Origin: Vicinamibacterales bacterium
Lineage (GTDB): Bacteria; Acidobacteriota; Vicinamibacteria; Vicinamibacterales; SCN-69-37
DNA length: 64,000 nucleotides
Assembly: GCA_035512575.1 (NCBI GenBank)
Contig: DATKDT010000073.1
Coordinates: 1,519-65,518 of the forward strand
Direction of reading: 5' to 3'
The position numbers and the translations under genes were made by a program. The notes beneath the pieces are model-generated. The model was not told the DNA's origin. It made no database searches and saw only the letters and a list, made by a program, of their open reading frames with translations. Shown here one piece after another: positions 2,149 to 45,139 of this stretch. Each line of letters opens with the position of its first letter. Position 1 is the first letter of the stretch.

Positions 2149-2933
2149 TCGACAGTCACTGCCACCTGGCCGGCGGGGAGTTCGCCGGCGATCTCGACGC
2201 CATCGTCGCGCGCGCGCAGGCCGCCGGCGTGGCGCGCGCCGTCGTCATTCTCTCGGCCACCGACGATGCGGAGCTGGCGCGGGCCGATGTGGTGAAGGCG
2301 GCCTGGCCGGTGGTGCGGTTCGCGTGCGGCGTGCATCCGCACGAGGCGGGGAAGTTCAGCGAGGCGCCCGAGTCGGCGGCCGGCGCGCTGCGCGCGCTCG
2401 TGGCCGGCCGCGCGGACATCCGGCTCGTCGGGGAGATCGGGCTCGACTATCACTACGACTTCGCGCCGCGCGACATCCAGCAGCGGGTGTTCCGGGCGCA
2501 GGTCGCGGCTGCGCGCCAGCTGGGCATGCCGGTCGTGATCCACACGCGCGAGGCGTGGGCCGACACCGTCGCGATTCTGCGCGAAGAGGGCGCCGGCGAC
2601 GTCGGGGGGATCTTTCACTGCTTCACGGGCAGCGAGGCCGAGGCGCGCGAGGCGCTCGACGCGGGCTTCTGCCTGTCGTTTTCCGGCATCGCCACCTTTC
2701 CCAAAGCCGACACCATCCGCGCCGCGGCACGGCTGACGCCGTCCGATCGGCTGCTCACGGAAACCGATGCCCCGTTCCTGGCGCCCGTGCCGTACCGGGG
2801 CAAGCGGAACGAGCCGGCCTTCGTGGTCGAGGTGACGCGGGCACTGGCCGCGACCCGGGGGGAGCCGATCGAGGCCACGGCGCGGAGCGCCGCGGCTACG
2901 CTCGACTCCCTGTTGGCCCGTCGCGTAAACTGA
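2145..2933 (+). CDS. TatD-family metal-dependent hydrolase/DNase
   Basis: N-terminal IDSHCHL, then GEIGLDYHYD and HCFTG motifs typical of TatD/YcfH. The GTG start overlaps the metG stop (GTGA). Confidence 0.85.
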   Translation: MIDSHCHLAGGEFAGDLDAIVARAQAAGVARAVVILSATDDAELARADVVKAAWPVVRFACGVHPHEAGKFSEAPESAAGALRALVAGRADIRLVGEIGLDYHYDFAPRDIQQRVFRAQVAAARQLGMPVVIHTREAWADTVAILREEGAGDVGGIFHCFTGSEAEAREALDAGFCLSFSGIATFPKADTIRAAARLTPSDRLLTETDAPFLAPVPYRGKRNEPAFVVEVTRALAATRGEPIEATARSAAATLDSLLARRVN

Positions 2934-2938
2934 GCGCA

Positions 2939-3934
<996 letters not shown>

Positions 3935-3946
3935 GCTCGCACACCT

Positions 3947-6118
<2,172 letters not shown>

Positions 6119-6138
6119 TCGAGGCACTGATCGTACCG

Positions 6139-7614
6139 ATGCGCCGTTTCCTTGCCGTTGCCGTCGTCCTCGTGGCCGTCGTGGCCTTCATGGTTGGGCT
6201 GGTTGTCGCCGGCTCCGGCATTCGCATGCCTGCCGGCCCGCTGATGACGATGTCGAAGGGTGGCGTGGCGGCCGGAACGGCCCCGCTGCAGGCCCCGCCG
6301 GCCGTGCTGGCCCCGGCAGGGATGGCGACCGGGATCGACTTCGCGGAAGTGGCGGGGCGGATGAACGCCGCGGTGGTCAACGTCGACGCGAGCTCGCGCT
6401 CGGGCCGCGGGCGCCGCGGCGACCTCGATCAGCAGCGCGAGGGCCCCAGGCAGGGGGCCGGCAGCGGCTTCGTCATCGACGCCGACGGCTACATCCTGAC
6501 GAATTTCCATGTCATCGACGGCGCCGATCGGATCACGATCACGCTGGCCGACGGCCGCGCGCTGCGCGCGCGCGTGGTGGGCACCGACCCGGCGATCGAC
6601 GTCGCGCTGCTGTCGATCGACGCGGGCGCCGCGGCGCGGCTTCCGGTCGCGGAGCTCGGCGACTCCGACCGGCTGCGCGTCGGCGAGTGGGTCTGCGCGA
6701 TCGGCAACCCCCTCGGCTACGTCCATTCGGTCACGGTGGGCGTCGTGTCGTTCATCGGGCGCAAGCTCTTCGACCCGAGCCTCGACGACTACATCCAGAC
6801 CGACGCGGCCATCAATTTCGGCAACAGCGGCGGGCCGCTGATCAACGCGCGCGGCGAGGTGGTCGGCATCAACACCGCCATCAGCTCGCAGGCCAACAAC
6901 ATCGGCTTCGCCATTCCGATCAATCAGGTGCGCGCGGTGCTGCCGCAGCTCAAGAGCCGCGGCCGCGTGGCGCGAGGCTTCATCGGCGTGACGCTCGAGA
7001 CGCTGACGCCGGCGCTGCAGCGCGCGCTCGGGCTCACCACCGGGAGCGGCGCGATCGTACAGGAGGTCACGCCCGACACGCCCGCGGAGCGCGCGGGCCT
7101 GCGCGTGTACGACGTCATCCGCTCGGTGGACGGCCATGACGTCGACTCGAGCGACGAGCTCATTCGCGACGTCTCGGGACGCCAGCCCGGCAGCGTCGCG
7201 CGGCTGCAGGTGGTGCGCGACGGCCGCGAGCAGGACGTGCTCGTCAAGCTGACGGAGCGGCCGCTGACCGACGCCGCCGGCGACGATGTCCGGCGGCCCC
7301 CGCAGCCGGCCGACAGCACGCAGCCGCCGCTCGGCCTCGTCGTGCGCAACGTCGACGCGTCGACGACGCAGCGGTATGGCCTGCCGTCGACGCTGACGGG
7401 CGTGCTGGTGACGCGCATCGAGCCGGCCAGCGTCGCGCAGGTGGCCCGCCTGCGCCGGGGCATGGTGATCCTGGAAATCAACCGGCGGCGCATGACGTCG
7501 GTCGACGACTACGAGCGCACGATCGCGCGCGCGCGGCCCGGCGACGTCCTTGCGCTCTACGTGTACGATCCGCTCGCCGAGCAGCGCTCCATCCTTACCA
7601 TCACGATTGAATGA
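6139..7614 (+). CDS. HtrA/DegP-family periplasmic serine protease with PDZ domains
   Basis: In-frame ATG at 6139 (MRRFLAVAVVLVAVVAF, signal/TM). Trypsin-like motifs FHVIDGA, DVALL and GNSGGPLIN, followed by two PDZ-like C-terminal segments. Confidence 0.85.
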   Translation: MRRFLAVAVVLVAVVAFMVGLVVAGSGIRMPAGPLMTMSKGGVAAGTAPLQAPPAVLAPAGMATGIDFAEVAGRMNAAVVNVDASSRSGRGRRGDLDQQREGPRQGAGSGFVIDADGYILTNFHVIDGADRITITLADGRALRARVVGTDPAIDVALLSIDAGAAARLPVAELGDSDRLRVGEWVCAIGNPLGYVHSVTVGVVSFIGRKLFDPSLDDYIQTDAAINFGNSGGPLINARGEVVGINTAISSQANNIGFAIPINQVRAVLPQLKSRGRVARGFIGVTLETLTPALQRALGLTTGSGAIVQEVTPDTPAERAGLRVYDVIRSVDGHDVDSSDELIRDVSGRQPGSVARLQVVRDGREQDVLVKLTERPLTDAAGDDVRRPPQPADSTQPPLGLVVRNVDASTTQRYGLPSTLTGVLVTRIEPASVAQVARLRRGMVILEINRRRMTSVDDYERTIARARPGDVLALYVYDPLAEQRSILTITIE

Positions 7615-8981
7615 AGCCGCGCATCCTCGTCATCGACGATGAGCAGGGCATCCGCGAGTCCATGCGGATGATCCTCGAATACGAAGGCTACGACGTCCTG
7701 CAGGCCGGATCGGCGCAGGAGGGCATGACGCTCCTCGCGCGCGAGCATCCGGATCTGGTGTTTCTGGACATCAAGATGCCCGGCATGGACGGGCTCGAAG
7801 CGCTCGGCCGCATCAGGGCGGCGCACGACGCGCTGCCGGTGGTGATCGTCTCGGGGCATGGCACCGTGAGCACGGCCGTCGAGGCGACGCGCAAGGGCGC
7901 GTTCGACTTCATCGAGAAGCCGCTCGAGCGCGAGCGCGTGCTGCTGACCATCCGCAACGCGCTCGACCAGAGCCGGCTGCGCGACGAGAACGTCACCCTG
8001 AAGCGCGCCGTCGAAGTGCGCCACCAGATGGTGGGCGAGAGCGCCGGCATGCGCGCCGTCATGGAGCAGGTCGGCCGCGCCGCGCCCAGCAACGCCACGG
8101 TGCTGATCCTGGGCGAGAGCGGCGTCGGCAAGGAGCTGATCGCCCGCGCTATCCACCGCAACTCCAACCGCGCGCGCGAACGGTTCGTGCAGGTCAACTG
8201 CGCGGCGATTCCCGAGGAGCTGATCGAGTCCGAGCTGTTCGGGCACGAGAAGGGATCGTTCACGGGCGCCACCGAGAAGCAGATCGGCAAGTTCGAGCAG
8301 GCCGACAAGGGCACGATCTTTCTCGACGAGGTCGGCGACATGAGTGCGAAGACGCAGGCCAAGGTGCTGCGCGTGCTGCAGGAAGGCGAGGTCGAGCGGC
8401 TCGGGTCGGCGCGCACCATCAAGGTCGACGTGCGCGTGATCGCGGCCACCAACAAGGATCTGGAAGAGGAGATCGCGCAGAACCGCTTCCGCGAGGACCT
8501 GTACTACCGGCTGAAGGTCATTCCGATTGCGGTGCCGCCGCTGCGCGATCGCCCGCAGGACACGCCGCTGCTCATCCGGCACTTCGCGGATCTGTTCAGC
8601 CGCGACAACAACCGCAAGCCCGCGCGCTTCACGCCCGCGGCCATGGACCTGCTGCAGAACCACCGCTGGAAGGGCAACGTGCGCGAGCTGCGCAACACCG
8701 TGGAGCGGCTGATCATCATGTCGCCCGGCGACACGGTGGACGTGCCCGACGTGCGCGGCGTGCTGCGCGTGGAGCCCGGCTCCAGCGCCGACCAGGCGCA
8801 GGGCGACAAGCCCGGTACGCTGCGCGGGTTCAAGGAAACGGCCGAGCGCGCGTTCCTAGTGGACAAGCTCCGCGAACACAACTGGAACATCTCGAAGACC
8901 GCCGAGGTCATCGACACGCCGCGCAGCAATCTCTACAAGAAGCTCGAGCAGTACGGGATCAAGCAAGAAGCGGACGGATAG
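7611..8981 (+). CDS. sigma-54-dependent response regulator (NtrC family)
   Basis: Receiver domain (ILVIDDE...LDIKMPGMDG). AAA+ sigma-54 interaction domain (GESGVGKE, ESELFGHEKGSFTGA, RVIAATN). C-terminal Fis-type HTH (NISKTAEVIDTPRSNLYKKL). ATGA overlap with the upstream protease gene. Confidence 0.9.
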   Translation: MKPRILVIDDEQGIRESMRMILEYEGYDVLQAGSAQEGMTLLAREHPDLVFLDIKMPGMDGLEALGRIRAAHDALPVVIVSGHGTVSTAVEATRKGAFDFIEKPLERERVLLTIRNALDQSRLRDENVTLKRAVEVRHQMVGESAGMRAVMEQVGRAAPSNATVLILGESGVGKELIARAIHRNSNRARERFVQVNCAAIPEELIESELFGHEKGSFTGATEKQIGKFEQADKGTIFLDEVGDMSAKTQAKVLRVLQEGEVERLGSARTIKVDVRVIAATNKDLEEEIAQNRFREDLYYRLKVIPIAVPPLRDRPQDTPLLIRHFADLFSRDNNRKPARFTPAAMDLLQNHRWKGNVRELRNTVERLIIMSPGDTVDVPDVRGVLRVEPGSSADQAQGDKPGTLRGFKETAERAFLVDKLREHNWNISKTAEVIDTPRSNLYKKLEQYGIKQEADG

Positions 8982-41717: not shown

Positions 41718-42711
41718 GTGGAGACTCCCGCGGGCCACAGCCGTGACCGGCCGCAGACTCTGCTCGCCGCCGTGCGGGCCAGCCTGCGCGCGAAGCACTA
41801 TTCGCCTCGCACAGAAGAGGCCTACGTTGGCTGGATTCGCCGGTTCATCCGGTTCCACGGGAGGCGCCATCCGCGCGAGATGGGCGAGACGGAGGTTGTG
41901 ACGTTTCTCTCATCCCTGGCCGTCGATGGTCATGTTGCGGCGTCGACGCAGAATCAGGCCCTGAGTGCGCTCATCTTTCTGTACGGCGACGTGTTGAACG
42001 TCGAGCTGGACTGGCTCCAGGGGCTTGTGCGAGCGAAGCGCCCCGAGCGCATCCCGGTTGTGCTGACGCGGGACGAAGTCGCCCGGCTTCTGTCCGAGCT
42101 GAATGGCACGGGGTGGTTGATGGCGTCGCTCATGTACGGCGCCGGCCTGCGGCTGCTCGAATGCGCGGAGTTGCGTATCAAGGATCTCGACCTGACGGCA
42201 CGTGAGATTCGTGTCCGCGACGGAAAGGGCCGCAAAGACCGTGTCACAGTCATTCCGGCCAGGCTTGTCGAGCCTCTAGCAGCGAAGCTGGCCGTCACTC
42301 GTGTGCTGCACGGCCGTGATATCGCCGCAGGCGCCGGCTGGGTGTCCCTGCCAGACGCGCTTGGGCGGAAGTTCCCTCGCGCGGGCCGTGAGATCGCGTG
42401 GCAGTGGTTGTTTCCCGCGACTCGGACGTACGTCGACAGGGAAACGGGTCAGCACCGCCGTCATCACCTTACACGAGTCGGTGCTCCAGCGGGCCGTTAA
42501 GGCAGCCGTTGAGCGCGCCGGTCTGACGAAGCGGGCAAGCTGCCATACGTTGCGGCACTCTTTCGCCACGCACCTGCTCGAGGCTGGCTACGATATCCGG
42601 ACGATTCAGGAACTGCTTGGGCATCGCGACGTGAGCACGACGATGATCTATACCCACGTGTTGAACAAGGGCGGGCGAGGCGTGAGGAGCCCTCTTGACG
42701 AGCTGAGATAG
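41718..42711 (+). pseudogene. intI: integron integrase, disrupted by a 1-nt frameshift near 42471
   Basis: ORFs 41718-42500 and 42301-42711 together read like IntI. Matches: HYSPRTEEAYVGWIRRFIRFHG, the IntI-specific patch [24 protein letters not shown]...[15 protein letters not shown], and [52 protein letters not shown]. An extra A between codons CTT and CAC breaks the frame. Confidence 0.9.
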
Positions 42712-42899
42712 CGCGCGCAACATATCCGACTACGCCGACCGGCCTAATCGACCGCTGCGTCTGTCGCCATATCGCCGCAAACCGCGGATTTGTCAGGGTT
42801 TGATTGACACCGGCCACGTGACGGAGCGCCTGTTTAGGCTGCGAGAGCGACCCGGATTGGCAAGTTACTATACGTTATGGAGTCCCAAATGAGGGTCCA

Positions 42900-43361
42900 A
42901 TGGGAGTGTCTTTAGTGCTTGTGTTCGCTCTGCTCGAGACGCTTGCGCCATCGCAGGTGCAAGCGGCGGCGCAAATTCGGACGCTTCGTGACCGATCGAA
43001 CGCGGCGATTGCTCGGCACGATGTGGAGGCTGTCCTGTCGTTCCTGGATGTTGAGTATCAGATCACCGCGGGAAGCGGGAGCCTCTCCAGCGGCCTCGCA
43101 GCAGAGCGTGAGATCTGGAAGGACACCTTTGCGCGCGCAGCTGATGTGGTGTATGTGCGTACCGCGGAATCGATCGAAGTGAGTTCGCCCGCCGTGAGCG
43201 CGGCCGAAATCGGTCGCTGGGTAGGCTCTTGGACGACGCCAGACGGAGTTCGTCGCACCGGTGGGCGCTACGCGGCACACTGGCGCTATGTGAACAGCGC
43301 GTGGAAGATTCGCTCCGAGCTCTTCGTGACGCTGTGGTGCGAAGGTCCCGGCTGCTCGTGA
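42900..43361 (+). CDS. cassette 1: secreted NTF2-like (SnoaL/DUF4440-like) protein
   Basis: Signal peptide. RHDVEAVLSFLD...W...GRYAAHWRYVNSAWKIRSELFV follows the pattern of NTF2-fold proteins. GAGGG Shine-Dalgarno 7 nt upstream. The stop lies 10 nt before attC. Confidence 0.65.
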   Translation: MGVSLVLVFALLETLAPSQVQAAAQIRTLRDRSNAAIARHDVEAVLSFLDVEYQITAGSGSLSSGLAAEREIWKDTFARAADVVYVRTAESIEVSSPAVSAAEIGRWVGSWTTPDGVRRTGGRYAAHWRYVNSAWKIRSELFVTLWCEGPGCS

Positions 43362-43370
43362 CGTTGGGCT

Positions 43371-43446
43371 CCCTAACATCGGCTTGCAGCCGACGGCGGC
43401 GCACGCAAGCATTGATGCCGCCGCGGCTGAAGCCGGCGCGTTAGGC
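43371..43446 (+). other. attC recombination site 1 (76 bp)
   Basis: R'' ccctaac and R' gttaggc. The arm ggctt(G)cagccg(A)cggcggc pairs with gccgccgcggctgaagcc, leaving two unpaired bases in the 5' arm. Confidence 0.8.
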
Positions 43447-43457
43447 GGTGCATTTTT

Positions 43458-44150
43458 ATGACGATCTACAGATACACGCCACAAGAGGCTTGGGTGAAAC
43501 ACGTCAAGCCCGCTCTAAATATAGCCGCGTGGATTGAGGATAGCTCGGCAGTGGGAACCGACATCGACTTGAGTAAGAGAGAGGTACTCTCCCTATTACT
43601 CATTGCTCACGTCCGGCGGGACCAGACCCAAGCGAACTGCCGCATTGGCTATGACACCGAGGGTGTAGAGCCGAATGACGGTTTTGTCGAAGGGAAGGAT
43701 GGGGCGATTCATGTAGAGAGCAAACTGGTCGCTCAATATGACGAGCGACCATTGCTCGACGCGATAAGGGAGACGTATGACAAGTACGAGGGACGCGGAC
43801 CTGCCTACGGAAGCGGCCGAGAACTAATGGTCTTCGCAAACCGCGCTAGCGACCGCCCCGGTCTGACCAGGGTATCGAGCTTACGCGATCACATCTTGAC
43901 CAGAAAAGAGTCGCCGTTCGATCGTGTGCTTCTTGCATACTGCCGTCCACATGGACCGCCGGGGACAATTAGCATTGGAGTAGTCGAAGCCTTTCCTGGC
44001 AAGGGATTCGCGCACGTCAACATCGACGTTACCTCTGGAGAAGCAGGGTTAAGGCTTGTCATTCCGTTCAGTGCCCCCGTCTCGCAAAGCTCCCCAGCCG
44101 ACGCCGACAAGCGGCGCGGCTCAACTTCAAGCATAGGCGGAAAACACTGA
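43458..44150 (+). CDS. cassette 2 gene A: hypothetical protein, possible PD-(D/E)xK nuclease-like core
   Basis: 230-aa ORF starting 12 nt after attC1. The segment EPNDGFVEGKDGAIHVESKLV fits a D...ExK pattern. No family recognised by eye. Lower GC. Confidence 0.6.
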   Translation: MTIYRYTPQEAWVKHVKPALNIAAWIEDSSAVGTDIDLSKREVLSLLLIAHVRRDQTQANCRIGYDTEGVEPNDGFVEGKDGAIHVESKLVAQYDERPLLDAIRETYDKYEGRGPAYGSGRELMVFANRASDRPGLTRVSSLRDHILTRKESPFDRVLLAYCRPHGPPGTISIGVVEAFPGKGFAHVNIDVTSGEAGLRLVIPFSAPVSQSSPADADKRRGSTSSIGGKH

Positions 44151-44175
44151 TGCAGCAGGCATCGGCCTAGAACAA

Positions 44176-44742
44176 ATGTGGTTATCAAAGACCGTTCCCG
44201 TATTCTTGGCAGGGATGTGGCCTGCCAAATTGCAACAACCGGGTAGCGGAACGAAGGTCGCAGTTCTGGATCGCGAAGGTGGAACGGTTCTCTTGCAGGG
44301 TTTCTCGGATGAGGCGGGTTTCTTTGTGGGTCGGTTGTCCGCGTCATGGATTGGAAAGCAAGTCTACATAGTCGTGCGGGAGGTGAGCTTCAAATACGAC
44401 TATTTCAATCCGCTGAAAGTAGAACGTTGGGGCTTGTTTCTAGCGGTACGCCAAGAGAAAGATCTCTTTTATAACGGTACCCAGGGTGCAAAATTGCTGG
44501 ATCCCCGAAGATGGGAAAGCTGGAACGCGACTGCCGAGCACATTAGAGCCTCCGCGGTCATAAACTCAGCAGCAAGGCGAGCCAAGATCGCTTGGCCCAT
44601 TCGTCAGGTGGGCCTGCTCGTAGCCGTAGCAGTTGGTGTCGCCGGCTTCGTCGTGCATCCAATAATAGGATTGGTATTGGGCGTCATAACGTATGGCGGC
44701 ACTGAGGTTCTTGCACATGTGTTGTTGCAGCGAGGGTACTAA
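44176..44742 (+). CDS. cassette 2 gene B: hypothetical protein with soluble N-terminal domain and two C-terminal TM helices
   Basis: 188-aa ORF 25 nt after gene A. C-terminal VGLLVAVAVGVAGFVVHPIIGLVLGVITYGG is hydrophobic. No family recognised by eye. Confidence 0.6.
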   Translation: MWLSKTVPVFLAGMWPAKLQQPGSGTKVAVLDREGGTVLLQGFSDEAGFFVGRLSASWIGKQVYIVVREVSFKYDYFNPLKVERWGLFLAVRQEKDLFYNGTQGAKLLDPRRWESWNATAEHIRASAVINSAARRAKIAWPIRQVGLLVAVAVGVAGFVVHPIIGLVLGVITYGGTEVLAHVLLQRGY

Positions 44743-44771
44743 CGCGAAATGGCACACGGCAAGCGGATACC

Positions 44772-44837
44772 GCCTAACATCACAGTGCACCGGACGCACG
44801 CAAGAACGGCGTGCGCCGGTGACTGTGAACGTTGGGC
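44772..44837 (+). other. attC recombination site 2 (66 bp)
   Basis: R'' gcctaac and R' gttgggc. The arm acagt(G)caccgg(A)cgcac pairs with gtgcgccggtgactgt. The TAACATC spacer and bulge positions are the same as in attC1. Confidence 0.8.
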
Positions 44838-45081
44838 GGACCAGGCCAGAGTCCACGATGTTCTTGGTTTCACTCATTGGCATGACCTTGCCGGTTTCTT
44901 GCCTTGCACTCGCGTAGGTGCTGGCTATTCCGTATGGCTAATGCTGGATGGTTTTCCTGTTGGTTCGAACGTCGCGGTAGCGATCACCGCGTACGATCTC
45001 GGCCCCAAGGTGCTGAAGGCGGATGCTCAGACCCAAAAGTGAGACCGGTCGCATTTTCCGATTGACGACCGATTAGGTCGG

Positions 45082-45139
45082 ATATAACATCCCTCGCTAG
45101 TTGAGAATGTTCTCAGTTAGCGAGGGATTGATGTTCCGG
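45082..45139 (+). other. long hairpin overlapping the Shine-Dalgarno/start of the TonB receptor; possibly a degenerate terminal attC
   Basis: The stem atccctcgcta...tagcgagggat (11 bp) encloses gagaa-tg-ttctc. It begins with ATAACATC, like the two attC sites, but has no bulges and a poor R' (gttccgg). Confidence 0.35.

Follow-up and report, generated by a model that had tools for sequence, protein, structure and literature searches.

The two genes A and B, which share one cassette of an integron in an acidobacterial genome, belong to families that are each independently mobile and self-sufficient: in all related loci that could be reached they occur apart, several times as single-gene cassettes. 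The cassette that carries both here is, in our judgement and with moderate confidence, a fused or co-packaged unit made of two unrelated autonomous accessory genes, and no two-part defence system. This concerns a single 64-kb stretch of DNA, called the window in what follows, and the relatives of its two genes in other genomes, where loci are designated by an L and a number.

The integron and its cassettes

Exact protein matches place the window in a metagenome-assembled genome of the Vicinamibacterales (Acidobacteriota). Between priA and a gene for a TonB-dependent receptor, it holds a small chromosomal integron with two cassettes and a frameshifted integrase, organized as follows.

41718..42711, + strand: intI, the integron integrase (Pfam Phage_int_SAM_4, 4e-29, and Phage_integrase, in two overlapping ORFs)
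42712..42899, + strand: presumed attI region and 5' leader of cassette 1, from its position between intI and cassette 1
about 42834-42841, + strand: GTTTAGGC, in the presumed attI region/leader
42900..43361, + strand: ORF of cassette 1, DUF4440/SnoaL-like (Pfam DUF4440, 7e-07, above the curated cut-off)
43371..43446, + strand: attC1, 76 nt, R'' CCCTAAC and R' GTTAGGC (heuristic scan, covariance models, single-stranded DNA fold)
43458..44150, + strand: gene A, coding for a soluble protein of 230 aa from an orphan family (homologues, alignments, AlphaFold model, hydropathy)
44151..44175, + strand: A-B spacer, 25 nt, with no attC (sequence, covariance models, fold)
44176..44742, + strand: gene B, a 188-aa protein (homologues, alignment, AlphaFold model, Foldseek, hydropathy)
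44772..44837, + strand: attC2, 66 nt, R'' GCCTAAC and R' GTTGGGC, the last attC of the array (scan, covariance models, fold)
44838..45100, no strand assigned: low-GC (54.8%) tail after the last attC, preceding the TonB-dependent receptor gene

The array lies, as integron cassettes should, beside a tyrosine recombinase of the IntI type, though the gene is frameshifted. When the integrase of locus L012 was used as a tblastn query, the alignment spanned the IntI-specific insertion and changed frame exactly between RRHHL and HESVLQ, where one extra base (CTT-A-CAC, near 42472-42474) causes the shift. The gene is transcribed from the same strand as the cassettes, the so-called inverted arrangement; class 1 integrons differ on this count, their integrase being divergent, and the frameshift sets the locus further apart from typical integrons. 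The protein of cassette 1 has a hydrophobic N-terminus that would be a signal peptide. In the tail that follows the last attC we found no convincing ORF and no further attC. A scan for sigma-70 promoters and terminators returned no more than chance, and a search of Rfam nothing.

The boundaries of the second cassette are well defined. A heuristic scan of the 41.5-45.3 kb interval found exactly two attC-like sites, attC1 and attC2, both with the R'' and R' boxes expected of such sites (consensus RYYYAAC and GTTRRRY) and both forming, as bottom-strand single-stranded DNA, an imperfect, long and bulged hairpin (z -3.85 for attC1 and -7.10 for attC2, with none of 200 shuffles folding as well in either case). 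A covariance model, R2, which was built from 10 attC sites taken exclusively from unrelated loci and is independent of the window, was run unfiltered on both strands of the whole 64 kb: the two sites that score highest, on the + strand, were attC2 (50 bits, E 3e-10) and attC1 (17.5 bits, E 0.036). Another model, R1, gave them 65.7 and 46.6 bits, respectively, and the scores of attC1 on the + strand far exceed those on the - strand. Measured from between the G and TT of attC1 to the same point of attC2, the cassette is 1,391 bp long (43441-44831). The 25 nt between its genes contain a 5-bp palindrome, GATGC-AGCAG-GCATC; covariance models detect no attC between A and B, and the fold of the spacer is indistinguishable from that of shuffles. 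The cassette thus departs from the usual rule of one ORF per cassette, holding two over an attC-free interval, and fits the rarer fused or two-gene class.

In other respects the locus resembles what is known of integron cassettes: attC-bounded units with R''/R' boxes and bulged bottom-strand hairpins downstream of intI, small promoterless ORFs, and a GC content that is low for the host. The 1-kb windows of lowest GC in the whole 64 kb start at 43501 (54.5%) and 44001 (55.0%), against 68.7% overall. An earlier note on this DNA had described much of this: two co-directional ORFs of 230 and 188 aa 25 nt apart, a single cassette of about 1.39 kb bounded by attC1 and attC2 without an internal attC, and the lowest GC of the window within it. 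The coordinates, scan, covariance models, folds and composition bear out that description in full.

Distribution of the two families

The same note went further and read A and B as a functional pair, possibly a novel defence or abortive-infection system. It had itself named as grounds for giving up this reading the failure of A and B homologues to co-occur, and in the loci that could be reached this is what we see. We fetched 26 loci, corresponding to 8 distinct A loci and 10 distinct B loci, and searched every ORF of at least 30 aa in them by tblastn and with profiles. No A locus (0 of 8) and no B locus (0 of 10) carried both genes, in a sample that is small and in which three of the ten B loci have only 147-212 nt of upstream sequence. 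The conserved A-B adjacency that would mark a two-component or toxin-antitoxin-like pair is missing from this set, and the PADLOC models, a further check proposed at the time, matched no family to A or B at E values up to 1.

What is found instead is each gene by itself. In L012, B is the first cassette beside a divergent intI and has an attC of its own behind it (4593-4659); the array also holds cassettes for Shedu SduA (PADLOC, 2.4e-92) and DUF6714. This locus is one of three in which B stands alone between attC sites, the others being L026 (573-635 and 1269-1335) and L005/L014 (5849-5937 and 6618-6699), and a single flanking attC was found just upstream of it in L013 and just downstream in L021. 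As for A, it lies alone in L023 between attC-like repeats of 71 nt that are 90% identical, as part of a cassette-like series of ten short co-directional genes. It is also a solo gene, with varied neighbours, in Neptuniibacter, in an uncultured gammaproteobacterium, in Urechidicola and in a fourth genome (L022). Its closest homologue, at 60% identity (L018), is followed 4 nt past the stop codon by the start of an ORF unlike B, and has an ATTGGGC heptamer 12 nt ahead of its own start.

Layouts combining a nuclease with a transmembrane protein recur in defence systems, and one may imagine that A and B evolved together as the two components of a system against phage or for abortive infection, in which a nuclease or sensor and a membrane effector would have to be inherited together. 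The single cassette, its 25-nt spacer and the lack of an internal attC all agree with such a history, and two-gene defence cassettes exist in integrons (10.1101/2024.07.02.601719). This reading is weakened because the two families never co-occur in the 8 A loci and 10 B loci and are each found separately, both genes being known as single-gene cassettes; the gene after the closest A homologue is not B, and PADLOC recognizes neither protein. We hold it to be very improbable.

A looser association can be considered, in which B would be a modular membrane partner of interchangeable nucleases, paired with 'a nuclease' and not with the A family in particular. Four of eleven distinct B loci have, 25-114 nt from B and with no detectable attC, a nuclease-like gene that runs in the same direction. 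In the window, this neighbour is gene A. In Dechloromonas, it codes for a 172-aa HEPN-like protein with the Rx4H motif RNAVAH (PADLOC RTasHEPN, 2.7e-4), in L025 for an Mrr_cat protein (2.3e-7) located 46 nt downstream, and in L020 for a UPF0102/YraN-like protein (6.4e-4). However, of these four nuclease assignments three are weak or fall under the curated cut-offs, the partner precedes B in two loci and follows it in the other two, and both integron arrays and defence islands commonly hold nucleases, which means that adjacency may be due to chance; eleven loci are also too few for statistics. Furthermore, since B exists as a single gene flanked by attC, alone between two sites in three loci and with one flanking site in two more, it needs no linked partner. 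The modular pairing appears to us improbable.

Gene A, a likely nuclease of an orphan family

Twelve homologues of gene A, at 35-60% identity, were found in a collection of 5.8 billion proteins, and an exhaustive profile search brings the family to about 80 clusters at 50% identity. Neither the protein nor 45 members of its family gave anything relevant or meaningful against Pfam, NCBIfam, PHROGs, PADLOC or profiles of PDB sequences. Hydropathy reveals no hydrophobic segment, and the final 19 residues or so extend beyond the conserved part. The alignment of 45 sequences highlights five invariant residues, R41, D74, G75, E87 and Y117, to which may be added E42, kept in 44 of the 45. The D...ExK motif singled out in the earlier note, EPNDGFVEGKDGAIHVESKLV (residues 71-91), is therefore a true family feature as regards D74 and E87; its lysine, K89, is found in 24 of 45 sequences, comprising nearly all of the core family, and is replaced by V or T in a distant branch. 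We considered whether the exchange of K89 for K110 between branches might reflect a 'lysine migration', and discarded the idea: the swap is confounded by phylogeny and counts in effect as a single change, and the core family conserves K109 too.

The PD-(D/E)xK core is characterized by an acidic residue in helix 1, an Asp before strand 2 and an E-x-K in strand 3. In the AlphaFold model of gene A (pLDDT 79.8), helices at residues 40-57 and 96-111 and strands at 62-66, 76-79, 82-93 and 121-129 follow one another in the alpha-beta-beta-beta-alpha-beta order of that core, with R41/E42 in helix 1, D74 ahead of strand 2 and E87-x-K89 in strand 3. The likeness to PD-(D/E)xK nucleases thus extends to the order of core elements and to the positions of E42, D74 and E87-x-K89, and the D...(D/E)-x-K motif of the superfamily is present. 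The differences are that gene A has no significant profile or structure match to any known member, and that the distant branch lacks the lysine. Foldseek searches of the PDB and BFVD returned nothing below 1e-3 (best E about 5e-3, TM at most 0.35), the weak matches including EcoO109I, the endonuclease domain of arenavirus L protein and Cdn1. Comparison by hhalign of the A profile with single Mrr_cat, UPF0102-like and Shedu proteins gave no significant alignment, that with the Mrr_cat protein superimposing D74, E87 and K89 on the D...ExK of Mrr at a non-significant E of 0.1; no curated family was matched in the Pfam and PDB-sequence searches.

Of the suggestion that gene A fits the PD-(D/E)xK nucleases, then, the motif stands and is joined by the secondary-structure order of the model, while membership finds no confirmation in profile or fold matches. 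Gene A is probably, though not demonstrably, a PD-(D/E)xK nuclease. As such it would act in the cytoplasm as a metal-dependent enzyme, with E42, D74 and E87 as its acidic cluster and K89 as its lysine.

Gene B, a predicted membrane protein

The orphan family of gene B is tightly conserved. The homologues of B, 24-40 in number and none of them named, are nearly all 43-63% identical to it (39% for the weakest match) and make up about 40 clusters at 90% identity. The start codon giving 188 aa, upstream of the publicly annotated one giving 175 aa, is backed by the conservation of TVPVFLAGMWP, which lies ahead of the annotated start. No Pfam match was obtained for 24 members of the family, and comparison of gene B and its family with PDB sequences, NCBIfam, PHROGs and PADLOC yielded nothing meaningful.

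The protein is predicted to begin with a beta-sandwich (about residues 6-90), to continue with an amphipathic helix of basic character and to close with a hydrophobic helical hairpin (about 142-182) that ends in a conserved RGY. Its AlphaFold model (pLDDT 87.1) comprises the sandwich at 6-90, with seven predicted strands, and helices at 118-160 and 162-185. The hydrophobic block of about 45 residues (KD19 up to 2.34 over 138-184) is split by a His-Pro into hydrophobic helices at 142-157 and 161-173. That gene B combines a soluble beta-rich N-terminal part with two adjacent hydrophobic helices at its C-terminus was already proposed from its sequence; the model agrees with the former, and hydropathy shows the latter to be present in all full-length relatives, so that B has the two adjacent, family-conserved hydrophobic helices of a two-TM protein, their insertion in the membrane being a prediction.

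The stretch ahead of the first of these helices has three basic residues and no acidic one, and the protein has no signal peptide. Because of these basic residues, the missing signal peptide and the RGY tail, we infer a cytoplasmic sandwich held by a helical-hairpin anchor. Gene B most likely codes for a protein anchored in the inner membrane, its glycine-rich two-helix hairpin lying in the membrane and its conserved sandwich in the cytoplasm, as suggested by the model, hydropathy and the positive-inside rule. Among PDB structures, Foldseek retrieves sandwiches of the CnaB, transthyretin and carboxypeptidase-regulatory-like types as top but weak matches to residues 6-90 or so (probability up to 1.0, E about 5e-3, TMq about 0.33), none having E below 1e-3. 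These domains are usually extracytoplasmic, whereas the charge pattern of gene B places its own in the cytoplasm. The CBASS effector Cap15 has the reverse of the domain order of B, where the beta-sandwich comes first and the two-TM hairpin last.

Origin of the two-gene cassette

The co-packaging of A and B most likely came about along the known 'fused cassette' route. A former A cassette and a former B cassette would have been neighbours, and the attC separating them would have been lost or would have decayed, so that the co-packaging of the genes would owe nothing to their proteins working together. With an integrase supplied in trans, recombination between attC1 and attC2 could excise or capture the unit as a whole and only as a whole, and the unit would be transcribed along with the array. 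Such fusions, in which an attC has been partly or wholly lost, are rare but on record (PMC4670013). The present case is like them in being a two-ORF unit without an internal attC, and differs in that no recognisable remnant of the lost site is demonstrated in the window.

A candidate relic was sought in the 3' tail of A. The non-conserved end of the gene reads through an attC-like stem (hairpin 44097-44125) and then CATAGGC (44134-44140), which might be what is left of the A cassette's site. We rejected it as indistinguishable from chance: its alignments to attC1, attC2 and the attC of L026 are matched by shuffles or by other GC-rich segments of the window, its fold has a z of -1.27, and the covariance model gives at best 4.4 bits in a scan of 44030-44200. 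Sequence comparison says little on whether attC2 is the site that originally went with the B family. The attC sites downstream of B in L012, L026 and L021 are 76-85% identical to one another; attC2 is 61-69% identical to them, and is no closer to them than to unrelated attCs. Since no statistically supported attC relic lies between A and B, it is the distribution of the two families that carries the case for a fusion.

Defence or other cargo

In the small set of loci sampled, defence-type genes recur in the neighbourhoods of both families. In L025, B is surrounded by genes for a SIR2/ThsA-like protein (7e-13), the Mrr_cat protein, a type I restriction-modification system and toxin-antitoxin modules, and the HEPN-like protein with its Rx4H motif is another neighbour of B. 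An Abi_alpha gene (1.4e-11) adjoins A in L015. AAA_16/STAND-like ATPases occur in L016 and L026, one of 695 aa adjoining A and an AAA_16 protein of 1,091 aa near B. The array that contains A in L023 also holds the PADLOC candidates PDC-S45 and PDC-S42. Some A homologues, to be sure, lie among housekeeping genes (L017, L022, L001), and neither gene has a match in the viral contigs of IMG/VR, GenBank phages or the plasmids of PLSDB.

Of the mobile-integron cassettes of unknown function that have been tested, a third or more conferred phage resistance (10.1101/2024.07.02.601719); about a third of the phage-resistance cassettes contain transmembrane helices, and two-gene examples exist (10.1101/2024.07.02.601719). 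Bacteriophage-resistance integron cassettes (BRiCs) and small membrane-associated proteins of defence or abortive infection are small single-gene cassettes, many with transmembrane helices and without recognisable domains, which are also found outside integrons in defence islands. B shares this profile, with a Shedu gene in one of its arrays and SIR2 and Mrr genes adjoining it elsewhere. It differs from them in having no homology to a described BRiC or to a PADLOC model. The neighbourhoods suggest that A and B probably act each on its own in inter-genome conflict or phage defence; an individual defence role for either is, on that basis, plausible but unproven.

A bolder proposal would make of B an undescribed integron-borne single-gene membrane effector of phage defence or abortive infection, for which nucleases are optional and interchangeable, and of A a new family of PD-(D/E)xK defence nucleases. 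The sandwich of B would then be a sensor and its glycine-rich two-TM hairpin the membrane-disrupting part, and the cassette would be a two-gene mini defence island made by cassette fusion. We find this unlikely as a whole.

It is possible, if less than likely, that neither gene is defensive and that both are niche-adaptive or selfish cargo co-packaged by chance. A could for example be a nuclease of DNA repair or recombination, or a non-catalytic relative, and B a protein of membrane or envelope stress. Most cassette genes have no known function, and about two thirds of such cassettes showed no phage phenotype when tested (10.1101/2024.07.02.601719); the A homologues among housekeeping genes and the lack of matches in phage, IMG/VR and plasmid collections go in the same direction. 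Against this reading stand the recurrence of defence-type neighbours for both families and the strong conservation of B across distant lineages, nearly all of its relatives remaining within 43-63% identity.

A probable fusion of two cassettes

The speculative idea of a novel defence system of two genes thus gives way to a more modest and testable picture, that of two orphan cassette families moving independently among the integrons of distant bacteria. Without a role in phage resistance, they would be ordinary integron cargo. Should A or B confer such resistance, it would join the growing list of compact integron-borne defence genes, and B, with its conserved attC partner, is a clean single-gene candidate. 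The locus itself is a natural case of two cassettes travelling as one, which bears on the origins of multi-gene cassettes.

Integron cassettes carrying gene B homologues

Homologues of gene B, which codes for a predicted beta-sandwich protein ending in a putative two-helix membrane hairpin, are followed at their 3' end by attC sites that share 76-85% identity pairwise on three unrelated contigs (L012 4593-4659, L026 1269-1335 and L021 1026-1092). The B gene and its attC have thus moved as a single cassette lineage. The L021 cassette adjoins rnf genes, and the R'' and R' boxes of its site are degenerate.

The L012 locus (2380-8100 of a 370-kb metagenome contig) is a complete integron. Its IntI, of 489 aa, has a long N-terminal extension, and the integron comprises at least five cassettes, each with one attC, the contents of which are as follows:
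the B homologue
a Shedu nuclease, SduA (PADLOC 2.4e-92)
a DUF6714 protein
unknown proteins of 271 aa and more

Neighbourhoods with defence- or nuclease-like genes

At locus L025 (4068-7585), on a contig of 65% GC, the B homologue is surrounded by type I restriction-modification fragments, by genes for a SIR2/ThsA-like and an antitoxin-like protein, and by several PIN/VapB/Phd modules. The next gene downstream, Mrr_cat, is separated from it by 46 nt that contain no attC. The region has the appearance of either a defence island or a cassette array in decay. Another neighbour is found in Dechloromonas (L002/L003):
L003 2108-2626: open reading frame of 172 aa, separated by 62 nt from the B homologue downstream of it
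The product displays the motif RNAVAH (Rx4H) and a weak PADLOC match to RTasHEPN (2.7e-4), and it may be a HEPN RNase.

Lysine positions and 3' tail of gene A

The family of gene A, the predicted PD-(D/E)xK-like protein, falls into two branches that differ at residues 89 and 110, in the numbering of the window protein (alignment A3). The first has K89, with a residue other than lysine, mostly Y, at position 110, whereas the second has V, T or C at position 89 and an invariant K110, located in the following helix. This exchange could reflect relocation of a catalytic lysine, but the two branches represent one phylogenetic split only.

In the non-conserved 3' tail of the gene (window 44097-44140) there is a stem of 10 bp in which a single A is bulged (AGCCG-A-CGCCG / CGGCG-CGGCT); CATAGGC lies 12 nt beyond it. 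A decayed attC was considered there; the resemblance is statistically indistinguishable from chance.

Layout of the window integron

Two further features are:
window 41718-42711: intI, the integron integrase gene, as two overlapping open reading frames split near 42472-42474 by one extra base (CTT-A-CAC)
window 42900-43361: open reading frame of the first cassette, coding for a DUF4440/SnoaL-like protein with a hydrophobic, signal-peptide-like N-terminus (MGVSLVLVFALLETLAPSQVQAAAQ)

Beyond the last attC, some 260 bp (44838-45100) keep a cassette-like low GC content (54.8%), with neither a convincing open reading frame nor a further attC. They could belong to a cassette that is truncated, or mark where the array ends. 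The sole sigma-70-like match of the region lies in this tail (45062-45090), upstream of a TonB-dependent receptor gene.

Throughout 41718-44837 the cassettes and intI share one strand, with attI, the presumed attachment region, downstream of the intI 3' end. Such an order is termed 'inverted'; in class 1 integrons, as in the L012 integron, the layout is divergent. The intI frameshift reflects either a real pseudogene or an assembly error in the metagenome-assembled genome; were the gene truly a pseudogene, the integron would be sedentary.
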